Position numbers and translations under genes: made by a program. A DNA stretch of 64,000 nt from Gammaproteobacteria bacterium (GTDB lineage: Bacteria > Pseudomonadota > Gammaproteobacteria > Eutrophobiales > Eutrophobiaceae), in the NCBI GenBank assembly GCA_004297165.1, contig SCUJ01000010.1, forward strand, positions 73,666-137,665, read 5' to 3'. The notes beneath the pieces were generated by a model. It was not told the origin of the DNA and did not search any database. It saw only the letters and a program-made list of their open reading frames with translations. Of this stretch, positions 36,044-58,068 are shown piece by piece (position 1 is the stretch's first letter; every line of letters starts with the position of its first letter).

Positions 36044-36904
36044 TTATTCCTGAGTCTTTTTCAACCGATACAGGGCGGAGATGTCCTTCTCCCCCTGGCC
36101 TTCCGCCATCAATCGCCGATATTGTCTCAGAGTCGCCTCGATGATCGGCAAAGGAAGATTGACATTCCGGGCCATCTCCGTGCAGATCAGCAAATCCTTG
36201 TGATGCAGTTTCACCTTGAAGCCTTTTTCGTAGTCGCCGGCTAGCATCGTCTTTCCGCGATGGTCGAGAAACCAGTTGGCCGCGGCACCCCTGGCGATCA
36301 CCTCAATCACCTTGTCCATATTCAAACCCAAACAGGCGCCGAAGGCCAAGGCGTCCGTGACCGCCTGATTAATTCCGGCAACCATGATCTGATTGACCGC
36401 CTTACAGGCCTGACCGCTGCCGGTCGGCCCGATGTGTTCGATCCGGGCAGCGATCGCTGTCAAAGTCTCATGCGCCCGCGCGAAGACCGCAGCTGACCCG
36501 CCGACCATCATCGCCAGCGACCCCGCAGCCGCGCCTTCCACACCGCCGCTCACCGGCGCATCCAGAAAATCGGCCTTGCTGCGCGCGAGGATCGCCGCGG
36601 TCTTACGGGCGGTTTCACTGCTGACGGTCGAGGTATCGACGACGATCGTGTCCGCGGTTACGGATGGTGCGATTCTCTCGACAACATCAATGACATCCTG
36701 ATCCGCAGAGACGCTGATGAGGATTAGTTCGCAATCCGCGGCCAGTTCCTCCATGGACATGGCCCGCGCCACGCCGGTCTCCGCCGCCAGTCCTTCCGCC
36801 CTGAATGCCGTCCGGTTATAGAGCCGGTGCAGATGTCCGTGGCGATGCAGATTCAAGGCCATTCCGGCGCCCATGGCGCCAAGGCCGATGACGCCGGTCT
36901 TCAC
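36044..36904 (-). CDS. NAD(P)-dependent oxidoreductase, 3-hydroxyisobutyrate/tartronate semialdehyde reductase family
   Basis: GLGAMG, DAPVSGG, catalytic K in GQACKAVNQ; GTG start overlapping upstream TGA. Confidence 0.88.
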   Translation of the reverse strand: MKTGVIGLGAMGAGMALNLHRHGHLHRLYNRTAFRAEGLAAETGVARAMSMEELAADCELILISVSADQDVIDVVERIAPSVTADTIVVDTSTVSSETARKTAAILARSKADFLDAPVSGGVEGAAAGSLAMMVGGSAAVFARAHETLTAIAARIEHIGPTGSGQACKAVNQIMVAGINQAVTDALAFGACLGLNMDKVIEVIARGAAANWFLDHRGKTMLAGDYEKGFKVKLHHKDLLICTEMARNVNLPLPIIEATLRQYRRLMAEGQGEKDISALYRLKKTQE

Positions 36905-38307
36905 GCGGAATAATGCCTGGCGATGACCTCCGCGACACAACAGCTCAGGCGCTTGGCCGTGGGGATGTGCAGGAACTCGTTGGGGCCGTGGGCATTGGCC
37001 TGCGGTCCCAGAACCCCAGTGATCAGAAATTGGGCCTTGGGGAATCTCGCCCCCAGCATGTTCATGAAGGGGATCGTCCCGCCCTCGCCCATATGCACGG
37101 CGGGTTTGCCGAAATAGCGCCTGGATGCCTCGTTCAGGGCATCATCGAGCCAGGGCAACATCGTTGGCGCCTCCCAGCCGCTGGCGCTCCAATCAGCCTT
37201 GAAGGACACCTTTGCGCCATACGGGGGTTCCTCCTCCAGCAACTGCTGCAAGCGCCTGGACGCCGCCTCGGCATTGCTGGTGGGCGGCAGTCGCAAGGAA
37301 ACCTTAACGGATGTGTAGGGACGCAGCACATTGCCCGCGCGATCCACATCCGGGATCCCCCTGATGCCGGTAATCGAAAGCGCCGGACGCCAAGTCCGGT
37401 TCAGGATCAATTCGACGGGATCGGAGACAACGGGCTGCATCCCGTCCATGAAGGGAAAACGGCGCTGCAATTGCGGCCCGAGCACGGCAGCGGCGACAGC
37501 GGCCTGCTGCAATCGCTCTGCGGGGATCTCGACAGTGAACTTGTCGTCCAGGACGATGCCGGTGCGGTGGTTGTCGATCCGGTTCAACAACGTGCGCATG
37601 ATGCGGAAACTGGACGGCACGATCCCGCTGGCGTCCCCGGAATGCACCCCTTCGCGCAGGACATCGATCCGCAATTCGCCCCCGATAAGTCCGCGCAGCG
37701 AGGTGGTGTTCCAGAGTTGTTCGTAATTGCCGCAGCCGGAATCGAGGCAGATCACGAGCGTGGGGTTGCCGCACCGCTCCGCCAATAATTCTATGTAGGC
37801 GGGGAAATCGTAACTGCCGCTTTCCTCGCAGGCCTCGATGAGGATGATGCAACGGCGCCTCGGTATCCCTTGATCGAGCAGGGCCTCGATTGCGATCAGG
37901 GCGGCGAACATGGCATAGCCGTCATCCGCTCCTCCGCGGCCATAAAGCTTGTCACCTTCAATCACCGGTTGCCAGGGACCAAGATCGCTGCGCCACCCGG
38001 TCATTTCCGGTTGTTTGTCCAGATGCCCGTACAGAATAATGGTTTGATCGCCGCTGCCGGGGATGTCGATAAAGAGTAGCGGCGTGCGTCCCGGCAAACG
38101 CAGGATCTCCAGCTTCAGCCCTGGAATATTGCGGGACTGGCACCAGGCGCGAAACAGCTCCATCGCCTGTTCCATGTAATCGTTCGCCTGCCAGTCGGGG
38201 TCGAAATCGGGGGAGAGATTGGGGATCCGGATATATTCCATGAGTGCAGGGATCGCCGATCGGTCCCAGCTATCCCCGCAATAGGCAATGGTCTTTTGCG
38301 TGTCCAT
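36901..38307 (-). CDS. M20 family metallopeptidase (ArgE/DapE/dipeptidase-like)
   Basis: YGHLDKQP, GRGGADDG, EACEESGS, EGGTIP, AHGPNE. Confidence 0.92.
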   Translation of the reverse strand: MDTQKTIAYCGDSWDRSAIPALMEYIRIPNLSPDFDPDWQANDYMEQAMELFRAWCQSRNIPGLKLEILRLPGRTPLLFIDIPGSGDQTIILYGHLDKQPEMTGWRSDLGPWQPVIEGDKLYGRGGADDGYAMFAALIAIEALLDQGIPRRRCIILIEACEESGSYDFPAYIELLAERCGNPTLVICLDSGCGNYEQLWNTTSLRGLIGGELRIDVLREGVHSGDASGIVPSSFRIMRTLLNRIDNHRTGIVLDDKFTVEIPAERLQQAAVAAAVLGPQLQRRFPFMDGMQPVVSDPVELILNRTWRPALSITGIRGIPDVDRAGNVLRPYTSVKVSLRLPPTSNAEAASRRLQQLLEEEPPYGAKVSFKADWSASGWEAPTMLPWLDDALNEASRRYFGKPAVHMGEGGTIPFMNMLGARFPKAQFLITGVLGPQANAHGPNEFLHIPTAKRLSCCVAEVIARHYSA

Positions 38308-41556: not shown

Positions 41557-42279
41557 TCAGGGTATTGGTAGAAACACTGCGGTCGCCATCCGCTGGATGA
41601 TTTTTTTGATCATCCGATTGTTCTTCCCAGCCATAACCATGGCCAAGGAATCCTGCAAGGCGATAAGTTTACCGAATAATCGTTCGTAGCTGCGATTCTC
41701 GACCTCGCCTGGCAGGGAGTTGCTGTAGATGAGCGGACGGCCCTCGATGTCCCGCGCCTCGCTCAATTTCCACACAGCCAATTCGATGTTTCTCGCGCTG
41801 TTGTACAGCGCCTGTGAATCAACGCTGTCATACAGGAAAAATTCGGTTTTGTAACGATAAGACGCCATCACCATCGATGTCAGTCCCAAGATATAACAGA
41901 AGACCCGATCGCCCTTGAATCCCGGCATGAGTGATAACTCTATCGCCTGGGCGCCAGAAACCCCGTTCAATTCCTGGAAATGCCAATTGCTGGTGCGACT
42001 GAAGATCCTATTGACGCTCTCGGCGACCTCAGGATGCGGCGATTTGGCCAATTCGCGGGGATTGCGCTTATACAGCTTTTCCATCAATTCACGCAGATAG
42101 GCGCGCGCCTCACGGACATTGATCTCCATCACCTGGTTCATGTCCGACTTGCCGAGGGAATACAGTCTGAAGCGATCTGCCTGCGGACCGTCTTCTATAG
42201 GGTGAGTTATACCGCATGCAGTAGTGATCAGCATCAATGCCATCATTACTCCACAGCCATGCTTTTCCGTGGCATGCAT
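41557..42279 (-). CDS. Hypothetical lipoprotein
   Basis: Hydrophobic leader ending ITTAC; 240-codon ORF coupled to upstream methyltransferase. Confidence 0.65.
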   Translation of the reverse strand: MHATEKHGCGVMMALMLITTACGITHPIEDGPQADRFRLYSLGKSDMNQVMEINVREARAYLRELMEKLYKRNPRELAKSPHPEVAESVNRIFSRTSNWHFQELNGVSGAQAIELSLMPGFKGDRVFCYILGLTSMVMASYRYKTEFFLYDSVDSQALYNSARNIELAVWKLSEARDIEGRPLIYSNSLPGEVENRSYERLFGKLIALQDSLAMVMAGKNNRMIKKIIQRMATAVFLPIP

Positions 42280-42283
42280 TCTT

Positions 42284-43498
42284 TTACAAATGTCTTCGAT
42301 GATCCGAAAAGGCAAAACCACGCAAGGGTTTATGATAATTTCTCCCCAGCACCATGACCTTGAAACGCTCACCCATCCCGGTTGGCAGAGTCAGGATTTT
42401 CGCCTGCACCAGGGCTCTGGCATGCGATCCTCGCTCGTCTTCCGCCAGCCTGTTGATCAATCCTTCCAGACCGCAGGCCAGCAGAAACATCGCTTGATTC
42501 GTGTAGCCCAACAAGTCAAGGCCGGCATCTGCTCCCGCTTCCGCTACGGCGGTGAAATCCACCGAGGCGGTGATGTCCTGCAACCCAGGATAGAGAAAGG
42601 GATTGGCATGCACCCGGTGCCGGTAATGGCACAATAAGGTTCCCCGATCGCGTTGGGGGTGATAGTACTCACGCCTGGTATATCCATAATCGATCAGCAG
42701 CATGATCCCCTGTTCCAGCGCCGCGGCAAAGCCACTTACCAAGGCGATCAATCCGGGATTGATCTCGGTGATGTACCCATCAGGCCAGGTATCATTAAGC
42801 TGATCCTTGATCTGCATCACTTGGGTAGTTGTCTTCTGGTCCGCGATGGTCTTGGTCCAGGCGAACCCGTCCAGATCTTCACAAACGCGATGCTCATAAA
42901 TCGCCGCTTCGGTAAATTCGATCCGCACTACCGGCTGGGCATCGAGAACCTCGTTGGCCAGCATGACCCCACGAAAACCCCTCGCCGGCAATCCATCGAG
43001 CCAGACGATTCTGTCGAGGAGATGCGGTACGCTGTTCGCCAGGTGCAGCCGCTGGCGCGCCTTCAGTTCCGCGCTGATCTCCAGGATGAAATAGCGCTCC
43101 GGAAGACATCCCAACAATTCCAGCTCGCGCAGCAAATCCGCGGCCATCACGCCGGCGCCGGCGCCGATCTCAAGCAGGGAACCGTCGCCCATAGTTTGGA
43201 GGATCTCCGCGCATTGCGCCGCGAGGGTGCGCGAGAAAAGCGGTGAGATCTCGGGGGCGGTTACGAAATCCCCCGAGCTGCCAAATTTCCGCGTTCCGGC
43301 GTTGTAATAACCCAGCCCAGGCTCGTAGAGCGCCATCCACATGAAGCGATCGAAACCGATCGATCCGCAGGTTTTTTCGATGACGGTTCTGATACTGGAT
43401 ATCAGGGCCTTGCTGTGGGCGAGGGCATCAGGGTCAGGATGCAGCAGAGCATCGATGTCTCGATTCATTCCATCAGCTATCTGCTGGACTGGTGTCAT
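42284..43498 (-). CDS. SAM-dependent methyltransferase, MidA/NDUFAF7 family
   Basis: ALYEPGLGYY, GDFVTAPEISPLF, EIGAGAG, ANEVLDA, IDYG, QDITASVDF, MGERFK; start uncertain. Confidence 0.9.
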   Translation of the reverse strand: MTPVQQIADGMNRDIDALLHPDPDALAHSKALISSIRTVIEKTCGSIGFDRFMWMALYEPGLGYYNAGTRKFGSSGDFVTAPEISPLFSRTLAAQCAEILQTMGDGSLLEIGAGAGVMAADLLRELELLGCLPERYFILEISAELKARQRLHLANSVPHLLDRIVWLDGLPARGFRGVMLANEVLDAQPVVRIEFTEAAIYEHRVCEDLDGFAWTKTIADQKTTTQVMQIKDQLNDTWPDGYITEINPGLIALVSGFAAALEQGIMLLIDYGYTRREYYHPQRDRGTLLCHYRHRVHANPFLYPGLQDITASVDFTAVAEAGADAGLDLLGYTNQAMFLLACGLEGLINRLAEDERGSHARALVQAKILTLPTGMGERFKVMVLGRNYHKPLRGFAFSDHRRHL

Positions 43499-52210: not shown

Positions 52211-52525
52211 GGGCCTGTAGCTCAGTTGGTTAGAGCAGTGGACTCATCAGTAATAATGGTGCGTTCACACCGGAAGGTGTGAAATGAACGGGATGAATTC
52301 AGGGAACCCATAACAACTCGGTTGATGGCAATCCTGAGCCAAGCCGGGGGTACACCCCCGGAAGGTGCAGAGACTACCTGGGAACTTTAGTGTTCTTAAT
52401 AACAGGCTAGAGCGTCCCGCTCCCCAGCAACTCCGTGTGCGGGAGATGAGATAGTCCATTCCCGTCAGAAATGACGGACAGAGTGAATCCATTGGTCGTA
52501 GGTTCAAGTCCTACCGGGCCCACCA
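52211..52525 (+). tRNA. ileX: tRNA-Ile2 (CAU, lysidine type), exons 52211-52247 and 52486-52525, interrupted by a group I intron
   Basis: Joined exons give a 77-nt cloverleaf: acceptor GGGCCTG/CGGGCCC-A-CCA, D arm AGCTCAGTTGGTTAGAGC, anticodon stem GTGGA/TCCAT with loop CT-CAT-AA, T arm GTAGG-TTCAAGT-CCTAC; lacks fMet hallmarks; position after rpoD matches ileX. Confidence 0.9.
52248..52485 (+). ncRNA. Group I intron, IC3-like, 238 nt, no ORF
   Basis: P1 with U.G at the splice site, P2 with GGAA loop, P3 CGGGAUG/CGUCCCG, P4 UUCAGGG/UCCUGAG, GGCAAUCCUGAGCCAAG and GAAGGUGCAGAGACUA core motifs, P7 GACUA/UAGUC, P9 with GAAA loop, terminal G52485. Confidence 0.93.
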
Positions 52526-52674
52526 TTTCATCTCTTGCTGCGCCATGCCAGCGATGCGTGGACACCACCCCAAGGCGACTTTGATCGATATCAATGAACC
52601 GATCACAGCGCGGATGCTAGTTTAGACCAATTGGCGGCAACAGTAAGGTCTGCCCAATCGCCTCATCATGAGAC

Positions 52675-54801
52675 ATGCCCACCCCACGATCCAAACGTGA
52701 TCTGACTCTGAACGGGACTGTAATCAGCGCCTGTCCGCACGATTGTCCCGACGCATGCAGCATCATCACGACGATCGAGAACGGCCGCCTGGCGAAAATC
52801 TCCGGCAATCCCAATCATCCGGTAACACAGGGTTACATCTGCCGGAAATTCGCGGCGGCACCGGCGCGGATCTATGCCAAGGATCGCCTAATCCAGCCCC
52901 TGCGGCGTACAGGTAAAAAAGGCTCAGGCGAGTTTCGACGGATCTCCTGGCCCGAGGCGATCGAGGTCATCGCAGAGCGCTGGAAAAACGATATCCAGGA
53001 ACATGGGCCGTTCAGTATCGTGCCGTTCTATGGCTCGGGAACTGAGGGACTGATCAACGGGCGGATCGCCGGCAAGCGTTTCTTCAACCGTCTGGGGACC
53101 GTGCAACTCAACCGCACCATCTGCACCAAGAGCGGCCGGGAAGGTTATCGCTATACCATGGGCGCCTCAATGGGGGCCGATCCCACCGCGATCGTGGACA
53201 ATAAATTGATCATCGCCTGGGGTTGTAATACGCCCACGACCAGCATCCATCACCAGGGCTATCTGCACCAGGCGCGCCGGAACGGTGCTGTATACGCCGT
53301 CATCAACCCGGCAAGGATCCGGGGCGCAGAGAACGCGGATCATTTTCTGCAACCGCGTCCGGGCAGCGATGCCGCGCTCGCCCTGGGCATGATGCATGTC
53401 ATCATCAAGGAAAACCTCCATGATGCCGATTTCATCCGCGACTATACGCTGGGCTTTGAAGAGTTGCGGGGACGGGCCGAACAATATCCACCGGAGCGGG
53501 TCGCCGCTCTCACGGACATCCCCACTGACGTCATTGAAGAATTTGCAAGACTCTATGCCCGCTTGCGGCCTTCGTTCATCTACGTGGGTCCGGGCTGCCA
53601 GCGGCACAGTAACGGCGGGATGACCCTGCGCACACTGGCATGTCTGCCGGCCCTGGTCGGGGCTTGGCGCTGGCGCGGCAGCGGCCTGTATTTTCCCACC
53701 AGCACTATCTTCCCGGTCGAGACATCCTCACTGGAAGGCAGCGACCTCCGGCCCAATCCCCCGCGTCGCTATAACATGATTGGGCTTGCCGACCTGCTGG
53801 CGAATGAGGATCCGCCCGTCCGCAGTCTTTATGTTTTTAACGGCAACCCGGCAACGGTTTTATACGACCAGAACAAACTGCGAACACTCCTGGCGAGGGA
53901 GGAATTGTTTACCGTTGTGCATGAACAATACCTGACCGATACCGCCCGTTATGCGGATATCGTCCTGCCGGCGACCACGCAATTCGAGCAAGACGATATA
54001 TTATTTTCCTACTACCATCTGAGCGTCCTGCTGAACCGGCAGGCGATTGCGCCGGTGGGCGAATGCAAATCCAATCTGGAAACCTTCAGCTTGCTGACGG
54101 AGGCCATGGGATTCACCGATCCGTGTTTTCGACAAGACAGCGATGAAATCATCAACGATATTCTTTCTCTCGATCATCCCGCTCTCACGGGCATAACGCT
54201 CCCTGAATTGGAGAAATCCGGCTGGGCGAGAGCGAATCTTGGGGCCGCCCATGACTTCGTAAAGCAGGGACGCTTCCCGACTCCGTCCGGTCGAATTGAA
54301 TTTTTTTCCGGCACAATGCAACAGGCCGGCCATGATCCCCTGCCGGACTACATCCCGCCGCAAGAAAGCCGGGAGGCGACGCCGGACCTGTTTGCGCGCT
54401 ATCCCTTGTATTTCCTGACCTCGTCCGCGCGCGCCTCCCTCAATTCGAATTACGCCCAGCATAACGGCATACCTGCCGGCAAGGAGAAACCGCTGCTTTT
54501 CATCCATGCCGAAGATGCGAAAGCCCGGAATATAACCAACGGCGACCTGGTCTGCGTATTCAACGACCGCGGTCATTGTCATATCACGGCGGAGGTCGGC
54601 GACGCGGTGAGACCGGGTGTCGTCGCCTGCCCTGGACTCTGGTGGGACCATCAATATCCCGAAGGGGGCAATCCCAACCACACGACGCCGGATTTCACCG
54701 GGTCGATCGGGGGAGGCTCGGCATTCAATTCAAATCTCGTGAACGTGTGCCCTGTGCGAGAGGACGTTCAGCACGGAAAGAGATATGCCGTCCCGCGCTG
54801 A
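52675..54801 (+). CDS. Molybdopterin (Mo/W-bisPGD) oxidoreductase with N-terminal 4Fe-4S site, YyaE/MopB_3-like, no Tat signal
   Basis: CPHDCPDAC...GYIC, RISWPEA, RTIC, NGNP, TARYADIVLPATT, C-terminal dinucleotide-binding domain (HAEDA..RNI..GD.V.VFN.RG). Confidence 0.9.
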   Translation: MPTPRSKRDLTLNGTVISACPHDCPDACSIITTIENGRLAKISGNPNHPVTQGYICRKFAAAPARIYAKDRLIQPLRRTGKKGSGEFRRISWPEAIEVIAERWKNDIQEHGPFSIVPFYGSGTEGLINGRIAGKRFFNRLGTVQLNRTICTKSGREGYRYTMGASMGADPTAIVDNKLIIAWGCNTPTTSIHHQGYLHQARRNGAVYAVINPARIRGAENADHFLQPRPGSDAALALGMMHVIIKENLHDADFIRDYTLGFEELRGRAEQYPPERVAALTDIPTDVIEEFARLYARLRPSFIYVGPGCQRHSNGGMTLRTLACLPALVGAWRWRGSGLYFPTSTIFPVETSSLEGSDLRPNPPRRYNMIGLADLLANEDPPVRSLYVFNGNPATVLYDQNKLRTLLAREELFTVVHEQYLTDTARYADIVLPATTQFEQDDILFSYYHLSVLLNRQAIAPVGECKSNLETFSLLTEAMGFTDPCFRQDSDEIINDILSLDHPALTGITLPELEKSGWARANLGAAHDFVKQGRFPTPSGRIEFFSGTMQQAGHDPLPDYIPPQESREATPDLFARYPLYFLTSSARASLNSNYAQHNGIPAGKEKPLLFIHAEDAKARNITNGDLVCVFNDRGHCHITAEVGDAVRPGVVACPGLWWDHQYPEGGNPNHTTPDFTGSIGGGSAFNSNLVNVCPVREDVQHGKRYAVPR

Positions 54802-55624
54802 TCAAATAGAGCAGCCGGCCTGTTATCTGCACCGGGGCATCGATTGCGTCGAACTTTTCGACTACCCCGCGAATACCCTGCCCACCTTGCGCAAGACTCT
54901 CGTGCGCATGAGAAACAGCGGTTGCAGGACCTTGAGCTTCCATTCCCCGATGCCCAGACCGGATCACTACACCGATTCAGGTGTAGCCTGCACCTACCTG
55001 CATGAGGATTCAGCGAGACGCGAGATCTCGTTCGCCCTCCTGGAGGACACGTTGACGCATGCCAAGGATTGGGAGGCCGATTACGTCGTCACTCATTTAA
55101 CTTATGGCAAGACGGACACCCGCGACCCTGGGCGCGCCGCAGCGCTCGCCACCGCCGCCTGCGAACGTTTCGCCGCGCTGAGCCGCGCTCATGATCTGCC
55201 GATCGATATAGAATTCGCCGCCTACACGGCGGCCTTCAATACCGCCGCGCAATTTGCGGCGGCGGTCGCGCCCCATCCGGAATTGGGCCTCTGCATCGAT
55301 ACGGGTCATGCCATGTTGGGGGCGCGGCTCAACCGGAGGGATTATTTCGCGGATATCAGGGCGCTCGCCCCCCGCGCCAGATCCATGCATCTCTGGAATA
55401 CCCAGGGGGATGGCCCGGAACATATCCCCCTGCATCCGGCGCAATCCCCGGCCGAGGGCTGGATCGATCTGGAACAGACCCTGCGGATCGTCCTCGCGCA
55501 TAACCCGGAAATTAACCTCGTCTTCGAATATCCGATCGCAAAAGTCGACCGCCAAATCCAGTCGGGTTACGATTGGATAAAGACCATGAAAGCAGACATA
55601 CTTCGCAAGCAAACCAAACCTTGA
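54785..55624 (+). CDS. Metal-dependent TIM-barrel protein, xylose isomerase/AP endonuclease 2 superfamily
   Basis: SFHSP, VVTH, DIEF, CIDTGH, SMHLWN, EHIP, FEY. Confidence 0.8.
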   Translation: MPSRADQIEQPACYLHRGIDCVELFDYPANTLPTLRKTLVRMRNSGCRTLSFHSPMPRPDHYTDSGVACTYLHEDSARREISFALLEDTLTHAKDWEADYVVTHLTYGKTDTRDPGRAAALATAACERFAALSRAHDLPIDIEFAAYTAAFNTAAQFAAAVAPHPELGLCIDTGHAMLGARLNRRDYFADIRALAPRARSMHLWNTQGDGPEHIPLHPAQSPAEGWIDLEQTLRIVLAHNPEINLVFEYPIAKVDRQIQSGYDWIKTMKADILRKQTKP

Positions 55625-55645
55625 ATCACCCAGGATGAATACGCC

Positions 55646-57127
55646 ATGAAAGACTTTAAAGTGCTGTTGATCAACTGCAATACCATGTTGGATACCCTGG
55701 TAACCGCTGGCATCGGCATTCTCTCGGCCTGCTTGAAACAGGAAGGCATCGAGGTCAAGTTGTTCGACACGACCTTTTACCGGACGGCGGAACGCACCGG
55801 CGACGAGGCCCGCGCCTATGCCCTGCAGGTCAAGCCCACCAACTTCGAGGACCTGGGCATCATCCCGGAGAAGGGGGATGTCATCGAAGAATTCTCCAGG
55901 ACCGTGGCAGATTTCAAGCCGGATCTCATCGGCCTGTCCTGCATTGAAGTCACCTGGCCGCTGGGATTGAAACTCCTCAACGCCGTGCGCCATACCGGGA
56001 TACCCACGATTGTCGGCGGGGCCTATGCGACCTTCGGGGCGGACATCGTCATCCGACAACCAGCCGTGGACATGGTCTGCGTCGGCGAGGGCGAACAGGC
56101 GCTCACGGAATTGTGCCGCAAGCTGCGCAAGGGCGATGACATCGCACACATCAAGAATATCTGGGTGAAAAAGGACGGCAAACTGTTCAAGAATCCGATC
56201 CGCCCGGGTATGCCGATGAAGGAACTCCCGTTCCAGGATTGGGAACTCTATGACAAGCGGCGCTTCTGGAAGCCCATGGGCGGCAAGATATCCGTCACCG
56301 GCACCTTCGAGATGAACCGGGGTTGCCCCTACACCTGCACCTTCTGCATCAACTCCGGTTTTCATAATCTCTATGAAGGCGTTGGCGGCTATTATCGGGA
56401 GCAGGAAATCCCGCGGCTTATCGACGAAATGCTCGAAAAGAAGGAAGCCTACGATCTCGCCTTCGTCTATCTGGTCGCCGAGAGCTTCCTGACCACCAAC
56501 CACAGCCGCATAGAGGAATTCGGACGGCTGTATCCGCAGGTCGGTCTCCCGTTCTGGGTGGAGGCGCGGCCCGAGTCCATCAGCAAGGACAAAGTGGCCA
56601 TGTTGCGGGAGATCGGCTGCGAGGGCATCAGCGTCGGCGTCGAGAGCGGCAACGAGGACCTGCGCCGAAACAAACTCGGACGCAATCTGACGAATGAGCG
56701 CATCATTCAGGCCTTCGATCTGCTGGCGGACAGCAACATCCGGGTCAGCGCCAACAACATCATCGGCTTCCCGACCGAAACCCGGGAGATGATCTTCGAC
56801 ACGATCGAGCTGGATCGGCAGATCAACGTCAAAGGGGTGATGGTCAGCTTCTTCAGCCCCTACCGCGGTTGCACCCTGCGGGAGGTCTGTGAACTCGAAG
56901 GTTATCTGAAGGAAGAGGACATCGCGGGCGATTACCGCCTTGGGCCTTCGATGCGGATGCCGCAGATCAGCCCGGATGAACTCCTTGGCCTGCATCGCAC
57001 CTTCCCGCTCTATGTCAAATTCCCCAAGAGCGAATGGAAAACCATCCGATTGGCGGAACAGAACACCACGGCGGGAAACGCCGTTTACAAAGAGCTGGCG
57101 CAGCGATACATGAAAGAATTCATGTGA
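55646..57127 (+). CDS. Cobalamin-binding radical SAM enzyme (class B methyltransferase-like architecture)
   Basis: N-terminal B12-binding Rossmann domain (FKPDLIGLS, VGGAYAT, VGEGE), RGCPYTCTFC cluster motif, GVESG, IIGFPTET, FSPYRG. Confidence 0.92.
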   Translation: MKDFKVLLINCNTMLDTLVTAGIGILSACLKQEGIEVKLFDTTFYRTAERTGDEARAYALQVKPTNFEDLGIIPEKGDVIEEFSRTVADFKPDLIGLSCIEVTWPLGLKLLNAVRHTGIPTIVGGAYATFGADIVIRQPAVDMVCVGEGEQALTELCRKLRKGDDIAHIKNIWVKKDGKLFKNPIRPGMPMKELPFQDWELYDKRRFWKPMGGKISVTGTFEMNRGCPYTCTFCINSGFHNLYEGVGGYYREQEIPRLIDEMLEKKEAYDLAFVYLVAESFLTTNHSRIEEFGRLYPQVGLPFWVEARPESISKDKVAMLREIGCEGISVGVESGNEDLRRNKLGRNLTNERIIQAFDLLADSNIRVSANNIIGFPTETREMIFDTIELDRQINVKGVMVSFFSPYRGCTLREVCELEGYLKEEDIAGDYRLGPSMRMPQISPDELLGLHRTFPLYVKFPKSEWKTIRLAEQNTTAGNAVYKELAQRYMKEFM

Positions 57128-57165
57128 CCAGCCGCCTTAATTGTTCACCGCGCGGGCAATAGCGA

Positions 57166-58068
57166 ATGGCCAGGATCGCCTTCATCGGTATTGGCAGCAT
57201 GGGCAAAGGGATGGCCCGCCGTCTCCTCGATAAGGGGCATGAGGTCCTGATCCATAACCGCAGCAAGACAAAGGCGCAGACCCTGGAGGTGGCAGGCGGC
57301 AGCATCATGGATTCCCCGGCAGCCGCGGCAGCCTCCGCCGAATTCATCTTCTCCATGGTGGCGGATGATGAGGCATCCCGGCAGGTCTGGCTGGGACCTG
57401 AAGGCATCCTGGCCGGCCGGCCAAAGGCCGGGGCCATCGGCGTGGAGTGTTCCACCTTATCCCATGACTGGATCCTGGAATTGAATGGACGGGTCACCGG
57501 CGTTGGCCTGCGCTTCATGGATTGTCCGGTGACAGGAGGCCCCGATGGCGCTGAAAAGGGGACCTTGAAGGTGCTCGCAGGCGCCGATCCCGTGACCCTG
57601 GCGGAAAGTACGCCTGTCCTCCGCGGATTCGCGGAAGAGATCATCCATTTCGGGCCGGTCGGCAGCGGCACATGCTACAAGCTGATCGTCAACCTGATGG
57701 GCGCGGCCCAAGCCGCGTCCCTGGCGGAGGGACTGCTGCTCGCCGAACGCGCGGGACTCGATCTCGAAACAGTGGGTTATGCCCTCGGCAAGGGAACCGT
57801 GTCCAGCCCCCATGTAAAATATCTCATCCCGCGCATGATCCATGCGGATCACGATGACATCTACTATCCGGCCTCGCTCCGCTGCAAGGATGCGGCGTGC
57901 GCACTTGCGCTCGCGGCCAAAAATCAGTTGGATCTGCCGGGTTCGAACAGCGCCGCGGATTTATACCGGCGCGCAGTGGCCGCCGGCCTGGGCGAGAAGA
58001 ATTCGAGCATCATCCTGGAGGTCTTGCGGACCGCGCAGCCCAGCGCGGGCAGGGACAAATCCGGATAA
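57166..58068 (+). CDS. NAD(P)-dependent oxidoreductase, beta-hydroxyacid dehydrogenase family
   Basis: GIGSMG, HNRS, DCPVTGG, GTCYKLIVN, KD in C-terminal domain. Confidence 0.88.
   Translation: MARIAFIGIGSMGKGMARRLLDKGHEVLIHNRSKTKAQTLEVAGGSIMDSPAAAAASAEFIFSMVADDEASRQVWLGPEGILAGRPKAGAIGVECSTLSHDWILELNGRVTGVGLRFMDCPVTGGPDGAEKGTLKVLAGADPVTLAESTPVLRGFAEEIIHFGPVGSGTCYKLIVNLMGAAQAASLAEGLLLAERAGLDLETVGYALGKGTVSSPHVKYLIPRMIHADHDDIYYPASLRCKDAACALALAAKNQLDLPGSNSAADLYRRAVAAGLGEKNSSIILEVLRTAQPSAGRDKSG

Follow-up and report, generated by a model that had tools for sequence, protein, structure and literature searches.

Phosphonate pathways and the four-gene module

To our knowledge, all oxidative phosphonate-tailoring enzymes (HppE, HEPD, MpnS and PhnY*/PhnZ) require O2 or H2O2. 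Among described systems, one of the closest to the genes analysed here is the early part of the Streptomyces fosfomycin pathway, which comprises Fom1 (a cytidylyltransferase (CyTase) joined to a phosphoenolpyruvate mutase), the phosphonopyruvate decarboxylase Fom2, the reductase FomC, the B12-radical SAM C-methyltransferase Fom3 and the CMP-phosphonate hydrolase FomD (chemistry summarised in PMC8158854). We compared these systems with a four-gene operon in a 64,000-nucleotide window, by which we mean the whole stretch of DNA analysed, from a Gammaproteobacteria bacterium (assembly GCA_004297165.1, contig SCUJ01000010.1, positions 73,666 to 137,665 of the forward strand). On the plus strand of the window, as called from open reading frames (ORFs) and Pfam matches, the operon encodes a molybdenum- or tungsten-bis(pyranopterin guanine dinucleotide) (Mo/W-bisPGD) oxidoreductase, hereafter the Mo enzyme (52675-54801, 708 residues), an AP_endonuc_2 triose-phosphate isomerase (TIM)-barrel metalloenzyme (54785-55624, 279 residues), a class B, cobalamin-binding radical S-adenosylmethionine (rSAM) protein (55646-57127, 493 residues) and a beta-hydroxyacid dehydrogenase of the HIBADH family (57166-58068, 300 residues).

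As in the fosfomycin pathway, the class B rSAM of several related loci, but not that of the window itself, lies in a phosphoenolpyruvate (PEP) mutase context, and in its archaeal relatives a Fom1-like fusion of CyTase and PEP mutase (PepM) adjoins the rSAM gene; the module likewise encodes a reductase that could make 2-hydroxyethylphosphonate (HEP) from phosphonoacetaldehyde (PnAA), and a putative hydrolase-type enzyme. Unlike that pathway, its reductase is of the HIBADH type rather than an iron alcohol dehydrogenase (FomC), its putative hydrolase is an AP_endonuc_2 TIM barrel rather than a DUF402 protein (FomD), and it carries a Mo/W-bisPGD enzyme and no HppE epoxidase. Its hosts are Proteobacteria, anammox bacteria and Binatia, its control is putatively of the FNR type, and it is often detached from PepM. 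A second likeness is to the phosphonyl-tailoring (Pnt) cassettes for 2-aminoethylphosphonate (AEP), composed of Ppm (or a Ppm-PntC fusion), phosphonopyruvate decarboxylase (Ppd), AEP transaminase (AEPT) and PntC (Rice et al. 2019, PMC6697681). The same genes flank or embed the module in Magnetospirillum sp. XM-1, in loci L142 and L019, in Brocadiales and in sister-clade loci, with a shared context of surface glycan or lipid decoration; the described cassettes, in contrast, have no B12-rSAM, TIM barrel or molybdoenzyme, and the text of PMC6697681 contains neither 'radical' nor 'molybd'.

The best explanation that we can offer, and one in which our confidence is about evenly balanced, is that the four genes constitute an oxygen-sensitive module that would tailor a two-carbon phosphonate derived from PnAA and be activated at low oxygen by an FNR-type regulator. 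The module is conserved across phyla, other branches of its rSAM family lie inside PEP-mutase clusters, and in several genomes it is operonic with genes for PEP mutase and Ppd or for AEPT and a cytidylyltransferase. We favour a phosphonate because PepM, Ppd and AEPT are the neighbours, HIBADH and AEPT share one slot, the TIM barrel is phosphodiesterase-like with ligands resembling those of endonuclease IV (Endo IV), and an FNR box precedes the operon. Class B rSAM tailoring of phosphonates is known; what would be new here is the combination with a molybdoenzyme, a phosphodiesterase-like partner and anaerobic control.

Conservation and phosphonate context

Our neighbourhood survey covered 46 distinct loci, 28 of them of proteobacterial type (gamma and alpha, the window's own copy included). 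The order Mo-TIM-rSAM-HIBADH recurs in the gamma- and alphaproteobacterial loci: TIM adjoins rSAM in 27 of the 28, the Mo gene is present in 23 and missing from 3 despite sufficient flank, and HIBADH lies directly downstream in 21, while 5 contigs end early. TIM also adjoins rSAM in 10 of 10 planctomycete loci with enough flank. Relatives of the rSAM at 68-80% identity occur in Gammaproteobacteria, Alphaproteobacteria and Brocadiia/Planctomycetota, those at 54-59% in Scalindua-like bacteria, Binatia and others, and the rSAM and TIM pair is also present in anammox Planctomycetota and Binatia. Orthologues of the Mo enzyme (50-68% identity) are found in the same taxa as the rSAM, even where the two are unlinked, and the gene block has evidently moved between phyla. 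Binatia and one other lineage retain rSAM, HIBADH and TIM without the bisPGD enzyme, and on several contigs its place is taken by a MOSC (molybdenum-cofactor-binding) domain, either fused to the TIM barrel or encoded by an adjacent gene (L204-L206 (P0226), L201 and L273-L279). These fusions suggest that the TIM barrel may work physically with a molybdenum partner. Together, rSAM and TIM make up the core of the module, joined in most cases by HIBADH and in most cases by a molybdenum partner.

The original prediction, made from the letters of the window, had described four co-oriented genes, the first two overlapping by 17 nt and the gaps that follow measuring 21 and 38 nt, and the ORF coordinates bear this out. 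The conservation of the block in many other genomes, where the four genes are again found together, marks the operon as genuine rather than a chance layout, and the prediction thereby withstands the refutation that had been set for it, a lack of co-occurrence. Its description as uncharacterised likewise stands, in that none of the four proteins reaches an NCBIfam equivalog cutoff or carries a functional name in any source searched, and neither literature searches nor surveys of phosphonate clusters (PMC8942020, PMC6697681, PMC9381506) describe the combination. The proposed substrate class is not supported: a sugar, sugar acid, cyclitol or nucleoside had been suggested, and the recurrent neighbours are instead PEP mutase, phosphonopyruvate decarboxylase, AEP transaminase and cytidylyltransferases.

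Several loci link the module to these genes directly. In a Rhodospirillales locus (L142), genes for a PepM-nucleotidyltransferase, Ppd, Mo, TIM, rSAM and HIBADH follow one another on one strand with short spacers, and both PepM (394 vs a cutoff of 320) and Ppd (424 vs 312) pass their NCBIfam equivalogs; in L019, PepM-NTP and Ppd genes are divergent from Mo-TIM-rSAM. The cultured Magnetospirillum sp. XM-1 has an operon of Mo, TIM, rSAM, AEP transaminase and NTP_transf_3 genes, in which the transaminase passes three equivalog cutoffs (e.g. 483 vs 296), with a PEP mutase gene (392 vs 320) 5 kb upstream and a polysaccharide locus downstream. The PEP mutase motif EDKxxxxxNS was found in L142, L019, XM-1 and L031, and in two metagenome-assembled genomes (MAGs) PepM lies on another contig (L015/L119 and L025/L130). 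AEPT in XM-1 occupies the HIBADH slot after rSAM, so that the two are alternative occupants of one position, and both enzyme types can take PnAA.

In Brocadiales the gene order is split Ppd, AEPT, nucleotidyltransferase, CDP-OH_P_transf, Mo, icd, TIM, rSAM and LPG_synthase_TM, and a cassette of this type without the module, but with PepM, is widespread (Nitrospira, Nitrospina, Omnitrophota and Methylomirabilota). Beyond the module itself, rSAMs of the sister branch (46-53% identity) stand beside PepM, Ppd, AEPT or cytidylyltransferase genes in 19-20 of the roughly 21 metagenome loci whose flanks could be used; sulfatase-like transferases also lie beside them, and these loci are without TIM and Mo. 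Envelope genes are also recurrent near the module, among them LPG_synthase_TM, MMPL, glycosyltransferase and hopanoid genes.

Some further features of these loci are recorded here in their own right. The XM-1 cluster (LN997848.1 838,611-860,110) holds a second B12-rSAM gene (L220 4409-5908, minus strand), which matches the Sden_1168 P-methyltransferase family best (127 bits, sub-cutoff) and is flanked by two SAM methyltransferase genes; an APS-kinase-like gene lies beside the PEP mutase of the cluster. A protein of about 287 residues (c16) recurs beside phosphonopyruvate decarboxylase genes in Brocadiales and on unrelated metagenome contigs (L050 8067-8930, L283 12597-13995, L284 4454-4927 and L302 3086-3547) and may be an unrecognised phosphonate-pathway protein. 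As a substitute for PEP mutase in Brocadiales, c16 (287 residues) was rejected: it has no Pfam, NCBIfam or PDB similarity, and L302 holds a true PepM as well. In Brocadiia bacterium JP1, hpnJ-, hpnH-, hpnK- (YdjC) and hpnI-like (GT21) genes (L050 3204-7858) lie a short distance upstream of the AEP-type cassette, giving this part of the anammox-related MAG the appearance of a membrane-lipid super-locus. On a metagenome contig (L281 1557-18886), a homologue 49% identical to the window's rSAM is surrounded by six B12-rSAM paralogues, and phosphonate genes were not detected. The planctomycete 'Iso_dh' gene between Mo and TIM was considered as a pathway enzyme replacing HIBADH and rejected, as it passes the housekeeping NADP-isocitrate dehydrogenase equivalog (icd, 607 vs 567). 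An NADP-isocitrate-dehydrogenase-type gene consistently follows the Mo orthologue in Planctomycetota, even apart from TIM-rSAM (L221 9001-12391; L006/L048 4662-8992), and Mo and icd are neighbours again in Scalindua. Genes for methylmalonyl-CoA mutase (MCM)/MeaB and PEP carboxykinase lie near the Mo gene in Binatia (L222) and L142.

Predicted activities and probable anaerobic control

The Mo enzyme matches Molybdop_Fe4S4, Molybdopterin and Molydop_binding, all above Pfam gathering scores, and carries an N-terminal [4Fe-4S] motif (C20-x3-C24-x3-C28...C56). It has no twin-arginine leader, and its sequence identifies it as a cytoplasmic, monomer-type Mo/W-bisPGD oxidoreductase; the cytoplasmic character given to the operon in the original prediction is supported. 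It is like acetylene hydratase and the cytoplasmic monomeric enzymes of the dimethyl sulfoxide (DMSO) reductase family (BisC, NasA/NarB, FdhF and YyaE-like proteins) in its single subunit, N-terminal [4Fe-4S] cluster and Cys ligand. Its best solved relative is acetylene hydratase 2e7z (193 bits), with whose tungsten-ligand Cys the predicted metal ligand Cys150 aligns. It differs in lacking the catalytic Asp13, the aligned position being Pro25, on which ground an acetylene hydratase function was rejected, and all of its NCBIfam scores are far under the curated cutoffs. We know of no member of the DMSO-reductase superfamily in phosphonate metabolism.

The TIM barrel (AP_endonuc_2, PF01261, 53.4 bits vs a cutoff of 31.1) belongs to a small, dedicated family of 111 homologues at E<1e-5, in which H16, E23, D26, H53, H104, D111, E143, D172, H175, H202, D228 and E248 are invariant; E143, D172, H202 and E248 form its Glu/Asp/His/Glu metal-ligand set. 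All 39 members scanned match the NCBIfam CbiR model, some also match Endo IV models and none matches an isomerase model. In a low-probability hhalign alignment, H104, E143, D172, H175 and H202 correspond to Nfo H109, E145, D179, H182 and H216. The AlphaFold2 model has a mean predicted local distance difference test score (pLDDT) of 94.6 and the alternating strands and helices of a (beta/alpha)8 barrel, and a Foldseek search with it found no PDB fold closer than a template-modelling (TM) score of about 0.65, epimerases and Endo IV being equally distant. By sequence, then, the barrel appears nearest to the CbiR and endonuclease IV phosphodiesterases and not to sugar isomerases. These are its nearest named families and have His/Asp/Glu metal ligands in common with it; the barrel is set apart from them by its score (30.1 bits vs the CbiR cutoff of 105), its separate 111-protein family and its lack of a cobamide gene neighbourhood.

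The rSAM has a B12-binding domain (PF02310, 53.4 bits vs 32.1, residues 19-156) and a Radical_SAM domain (PF04055, 69.2 bits vs 29.5) whose CxxxCxxC motif is C227-x3-C231-x2-C234. Assignments as BchE (97/481), HpnJ (93/578), PhpK (78/600) and ladderane rSAM (65/360) were rejected on scores far below the NCBIfam cutoffs, the HpnR, BzaD and Sden_1168 equivalogs were rejected on sub-cutoff scores as well, and no Fom3 model was among the matches of the NCBIfam scan. Some class B radical SAM members are not methylases. By analogy, C-methylation is the likeliest core chemistry, so that the methylation foreseen in the original prediction is retained, although a sugar as its target is not supported.

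The HIBADH-family enzyme has NAD_binding_2 and NAD_binding_11 domains above Pfam cutoffs. An alignment of 28 sequences, in which some contigs appear twice under different locus identifiers, shows conservation of its GxGxxG motif, its N-R-S/T motif (residues 31-33) and the catalytic Lys of 'YKL..N'. The N-R-S/T motif marks NADP(H) users and NADPH reductases in this family, and the enzyme probably uses NADP(H). It reaches no specific NCBIfam equivalog (e.g. sulfolactaldehyde reductase, 141/348), and the solved structures nearest to it are semialdehyde, glyoxylate and sulfolactaldehyde reductase-type enzymes, together with 5u5g, which we take to be the fosfomycin-pathway reductase Psf3. PnAA is the phosphonate analogue of malonate semialdehyde.

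A pattern search revealed a perfect FNR/CRP-family box, TTGATcgatATCAA, at 52581-52594, centred 87.5 nt upstream of the ATG of the Mo gene, and this is the single zero-mismatch match to the TTGATNNNNATCAA pattern (TTGAT-N4-ATCAA) in the whole 64-kb window. Of 40 related loci, 11, every one of them proteobacterial, have such a box with no more than one mismatch in the 300 nt preceding the module, where chance would give about 0.02 per 310 nt. We presume the box to be a putative site of anaerobic activation, and an FNR-type regulator probably activates the operon at low oxygen. The absence of a regulator reported earlier is thus correct for genes but not for this upstream site, and the oxygen dimension given by the box and by linkage to ubiTUV is an aspect that the first description lacked. 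Elsewhere in the window, three one-mismatch FNR-like boxes occur within 700 nt (42119, 42224 and 42807; region 42119-42820), the sole cluster of such sites apart from the perfect box at 52581.

Every catalytic step of the pathway that we infer from these associations is modelled on FomC, Fom1-CyTase, Fom3 and FomD of the Streptomyces fosfomycin pathway. The NADPH-type HIBADH enzyme would first reduce PnAA to HEP, or, where AEPT takes its place, the intermediate would be AEP. A cytidylyltransferase encoded elsewhere would then form the cytidine monophosphate (CMP) conjugate, on which the B12-rSAM would alter the two-carbon chain, most likely by C-methylation, and the CbiR/Endo IV-like TIM barrel would cleave or transfer the nucleotide- or phosphoester-linked product. 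The Mo/W-bisPGD enzyme would finally carry out an oxygen-independent two-electron step on the product, whether hydroxylation, dehydrogenation or X-O reduction; in some relatives, a TIM-fused MOSC domain is found in the place of the Mo enzyme. The product would probably decorate surface glycans or lipids.

A further-reaching proposal, which we advance tentatively and regard as clearly the less probable of the two, is that anoxic nitrogen-cycle bacteria, anammox bacteria included, possess here a means of making, without oxygen, phosphonates that are C-methylated and then oxidised or reduced further, and that with the Mo/W-bisPGD enzyme (or the TIM-fused MOSC protein) a molybdoenzyme would for the first time be shown to act on a C-P compound. 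By analogy, products could include 2-hydroxypropyl- or 2-aminopropylphosphonate head groups and their derivatives. If so, the module would in effect be an anaerobic equivalent of the iron enzymes HppE, HEPD, MpnS and PhnY*, which depend on O2 or H2O2. Anoxic sediments, groundwater and oxygen-minimum zones commonly harbour phosphonate genes, and such a route would show how C-P compounds diversify without oxygen and extend the DMSO-reductase superfamily by a new type of reaction. It would point, too, to overlooked phosphonate-bearing lipids or glycans in anammox and magnetotactic bacteria and in uncultured Gammaproteobacteria, and it would provide function leads for three 'hypothetical' families together, a question that the cultured Magnetospirillum sp. 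XM-1 makes directly testable.

Several observations weigh against phosphonate tailoring. The roles of the TIM barrel and the Mo enzyme derive from weak homology (30 bits to CbiR and 193 to acetylene hydratase), and the rSAM is Fom3-like by context and analogy, which is a weak point. Searches with tblastn for PEP mutase, Ppd, AEPT and cytidylyltransferase found none of them in the 64-kb window, and the EDKxxxxxNS motif is absent from all six frames; with PepM and Ppd not in the window, they must be elsewhere in the genome, or the substrate must be imported. Counted over locus flanks (≤10 kb), PepM accompanies the module in just 3 of the 28 proteobacterial loci, versus 10 with ubiU/ubiV. No PepM lies within about 8 kb of the Brocadiales cassette, and the housekeeping-like icd gene within it means that part of this synteny may be historical. 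Orthologues of the Mo enzyme also lie apart from the rSAM in Scalindua and Binatia, near icd or MCM/MeaB.

Each of the four alternatives that we weighed is improbable to some degree, and the one that survives best, though we still regard it as unlikely, holds that the derived rSAM and TIM clade has left phosphonates and modifies a phosphate-ester or other polar lipid or glycolipid head group, such as a phosphoethanolamine, glycerophospho or CDP-alcohol derivative, with phosphonate genes adjacent since both serve the envelope. The scarcity of PepM near most proteobacterial loci fits this view, as does the isosterism of AEP and phosphoethanolamine. LPG_synthase_TM follows TIM-rSAM in 9 of 9 planctomycete loci with enough downstream flank, in Binatia an MMPL transporter and a GT28 glycosyltransferase are encoded alongside, and the Brocadiia JP1 locus adds CDP-OH_P_transf to its hpnH/I/J/K-like genes. 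However, LPG_synthase_TM itself belongs to the AEP cassette in other phyla too, and members of the derived clade, at 63-74% identity to the window's protein, are operonic with PepM/Ppd or AEPT (L142, L019, XM-1 and Brocadiales).

The linkage to ubiU/ubiV raises a second alternative, to which we assign a low probability: that the module is part of oxygen-independent quinone metabolism, or another anaerobic substitute for an O2-requiring step, together with UbiT/UbiU/UbiV. In 10 proteobacterial loci of the genome collection the module is bordered, in three different arrangements, by genes for true UbiU (50-57% identical to the E. coli protein) and UbiV (33-42%), with operon-like gaps in L003, L004, L016 and L026; ubiT and ubiD are also near, and there are further ubi-linked cases among metagenome loci. 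FNR boxes accompany both gene sets, ubiTUV being FNR-activated in Pseudomonadota (PMC11707229), and both systems rely on oxygen-labile Fe-S enzymes. Shared FNR control of such enzymes suffices, however, to explain the adjacency without a shared pathway. The protein families are different, and anammox Planctomycetota and Binatia conserve the module no less well, with its rSAM family reaching archaea, whereas ubiquinone (UQ) pathways are absent from prokaryotes outside Pseudomonadota (PMC11707229). The published UbiTUV pathway, as summarised in the titles and abstracts of PMC6747719 and PMC10990095, needs no such enzymes, and no ubiUV genes lie near the module in the window and about half of the loci. 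The U32 peptidase-family neighbours were also considered as module-specific hydroxylases, a reading that was dropped because they are orthologous to E. coli UbiU/UbiV, have UbiT and UbiD nearby and so count as ordinary genes of quinone metabolism.

The chances are poorer for the route first proposed, a cytoplasmic one for the synthesis or breakdown of a methylated or deoxygenated sugar, sugar acid, cyclitol or nucleoside, with the TIM barrel as isomerase, epimerase or dehydratase and HIBADH as partner dehydrogenase (cf. Hyi/GlxR or OtnI/LtnD). Pairs of HIBADH and AP_endonuc_2 TIM proteins do occur in acid-sugar catabolism (gcl-hyi-glxR, ltnD-otnI), sugar epimerases rank marginally first in Foldseek, and among PDB sequences the rSAM core matches the diol dehydratase AprD4 best. 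The Foldseek TM-score is only about 0.6, however, and Endo IV ranks equal; the scanned TIM family falls, without exception, into the phosphodiesterase branch (CbiR, then endonuclease IV) rather than any sugar isomerase or epimerase model, no sugar kinase, transporter, aldolase or glycosidase recurs beside the module, and phosphonate genes do.

Least likely of all, and in our estimate very improbable, is that the TIM barrel acts on a cofactor, as a CbiR-like cobamide phosphodiesterase supplying corrinoid to the B12-rSAM, or that the module remodels or makes part of a cobamide under anoxia: CbiR is the sole named family matched by all TIM members, is oxygen-sensitive and hydrolyses adenosylcobalamin and methylcobalamin (PMC7733943), the barrel is the universal partner of a B12 enzyme, and the Mo gene is flanked in Binatia by B12-dependent MCM/MeaB genes, which L142 carries upstream, but the TIM scores reach 30-33 against the CbiR cutoff of 105, cobamide biosynthesis or salvage genes do not recur beside the module whereas they accompany 80% of true cbiR genes (PMC7733943), sister-clade rSAMs work without a TIM partner, and HIBADH/AEPT and Mo would be left unexplained.

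The operon in its genomic setting

Upstream of the operon the window carries dnaG, rpoD and a tRNA gene, and downstream a PilZ protein gene and a gamma-glutamyltransferase gene; a near-identical locus, its TIM protein 99% identical, is present in JBFOMR010000322.1 (assembly GCA_040960765.1). A 632-residue antisense ORF (55097-56995, minus strand) over TIM and rSAM was dismissed as a composition artefact, a GC-driven shadow, and similar long shadow ORFs in GC-rich related loci misled a simple gene caller. Rfam matches within the operon (ALIL, sR35 and Plastid-ycf2) were rejected on scores far under the gathering thresholds. The window also encodes a second, distant HIBADH-family paralogue at 36044-36940 (minus strand), with 27% identity to the operon enzyme.

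The tRNA reported directly upstream of the operon is real and ends 149 nt before the Mo gene, but is split by a group I intron. Positioned directly after rpoD, it has exons at 52211-52247 and 52486-52525 and a 238-nt intron at 52248-52485 (Rfam RF00028, 66 bits) that interrupts it 3' of the anticodon. ARAGORN missed the unspliced gene and called the 77-nt product spliced by hand as a tRNA with anticodon CAU. This intron-split CAU tRNA is reminiscent of the Azoarcus pre-tRNA-Ile and its intron.

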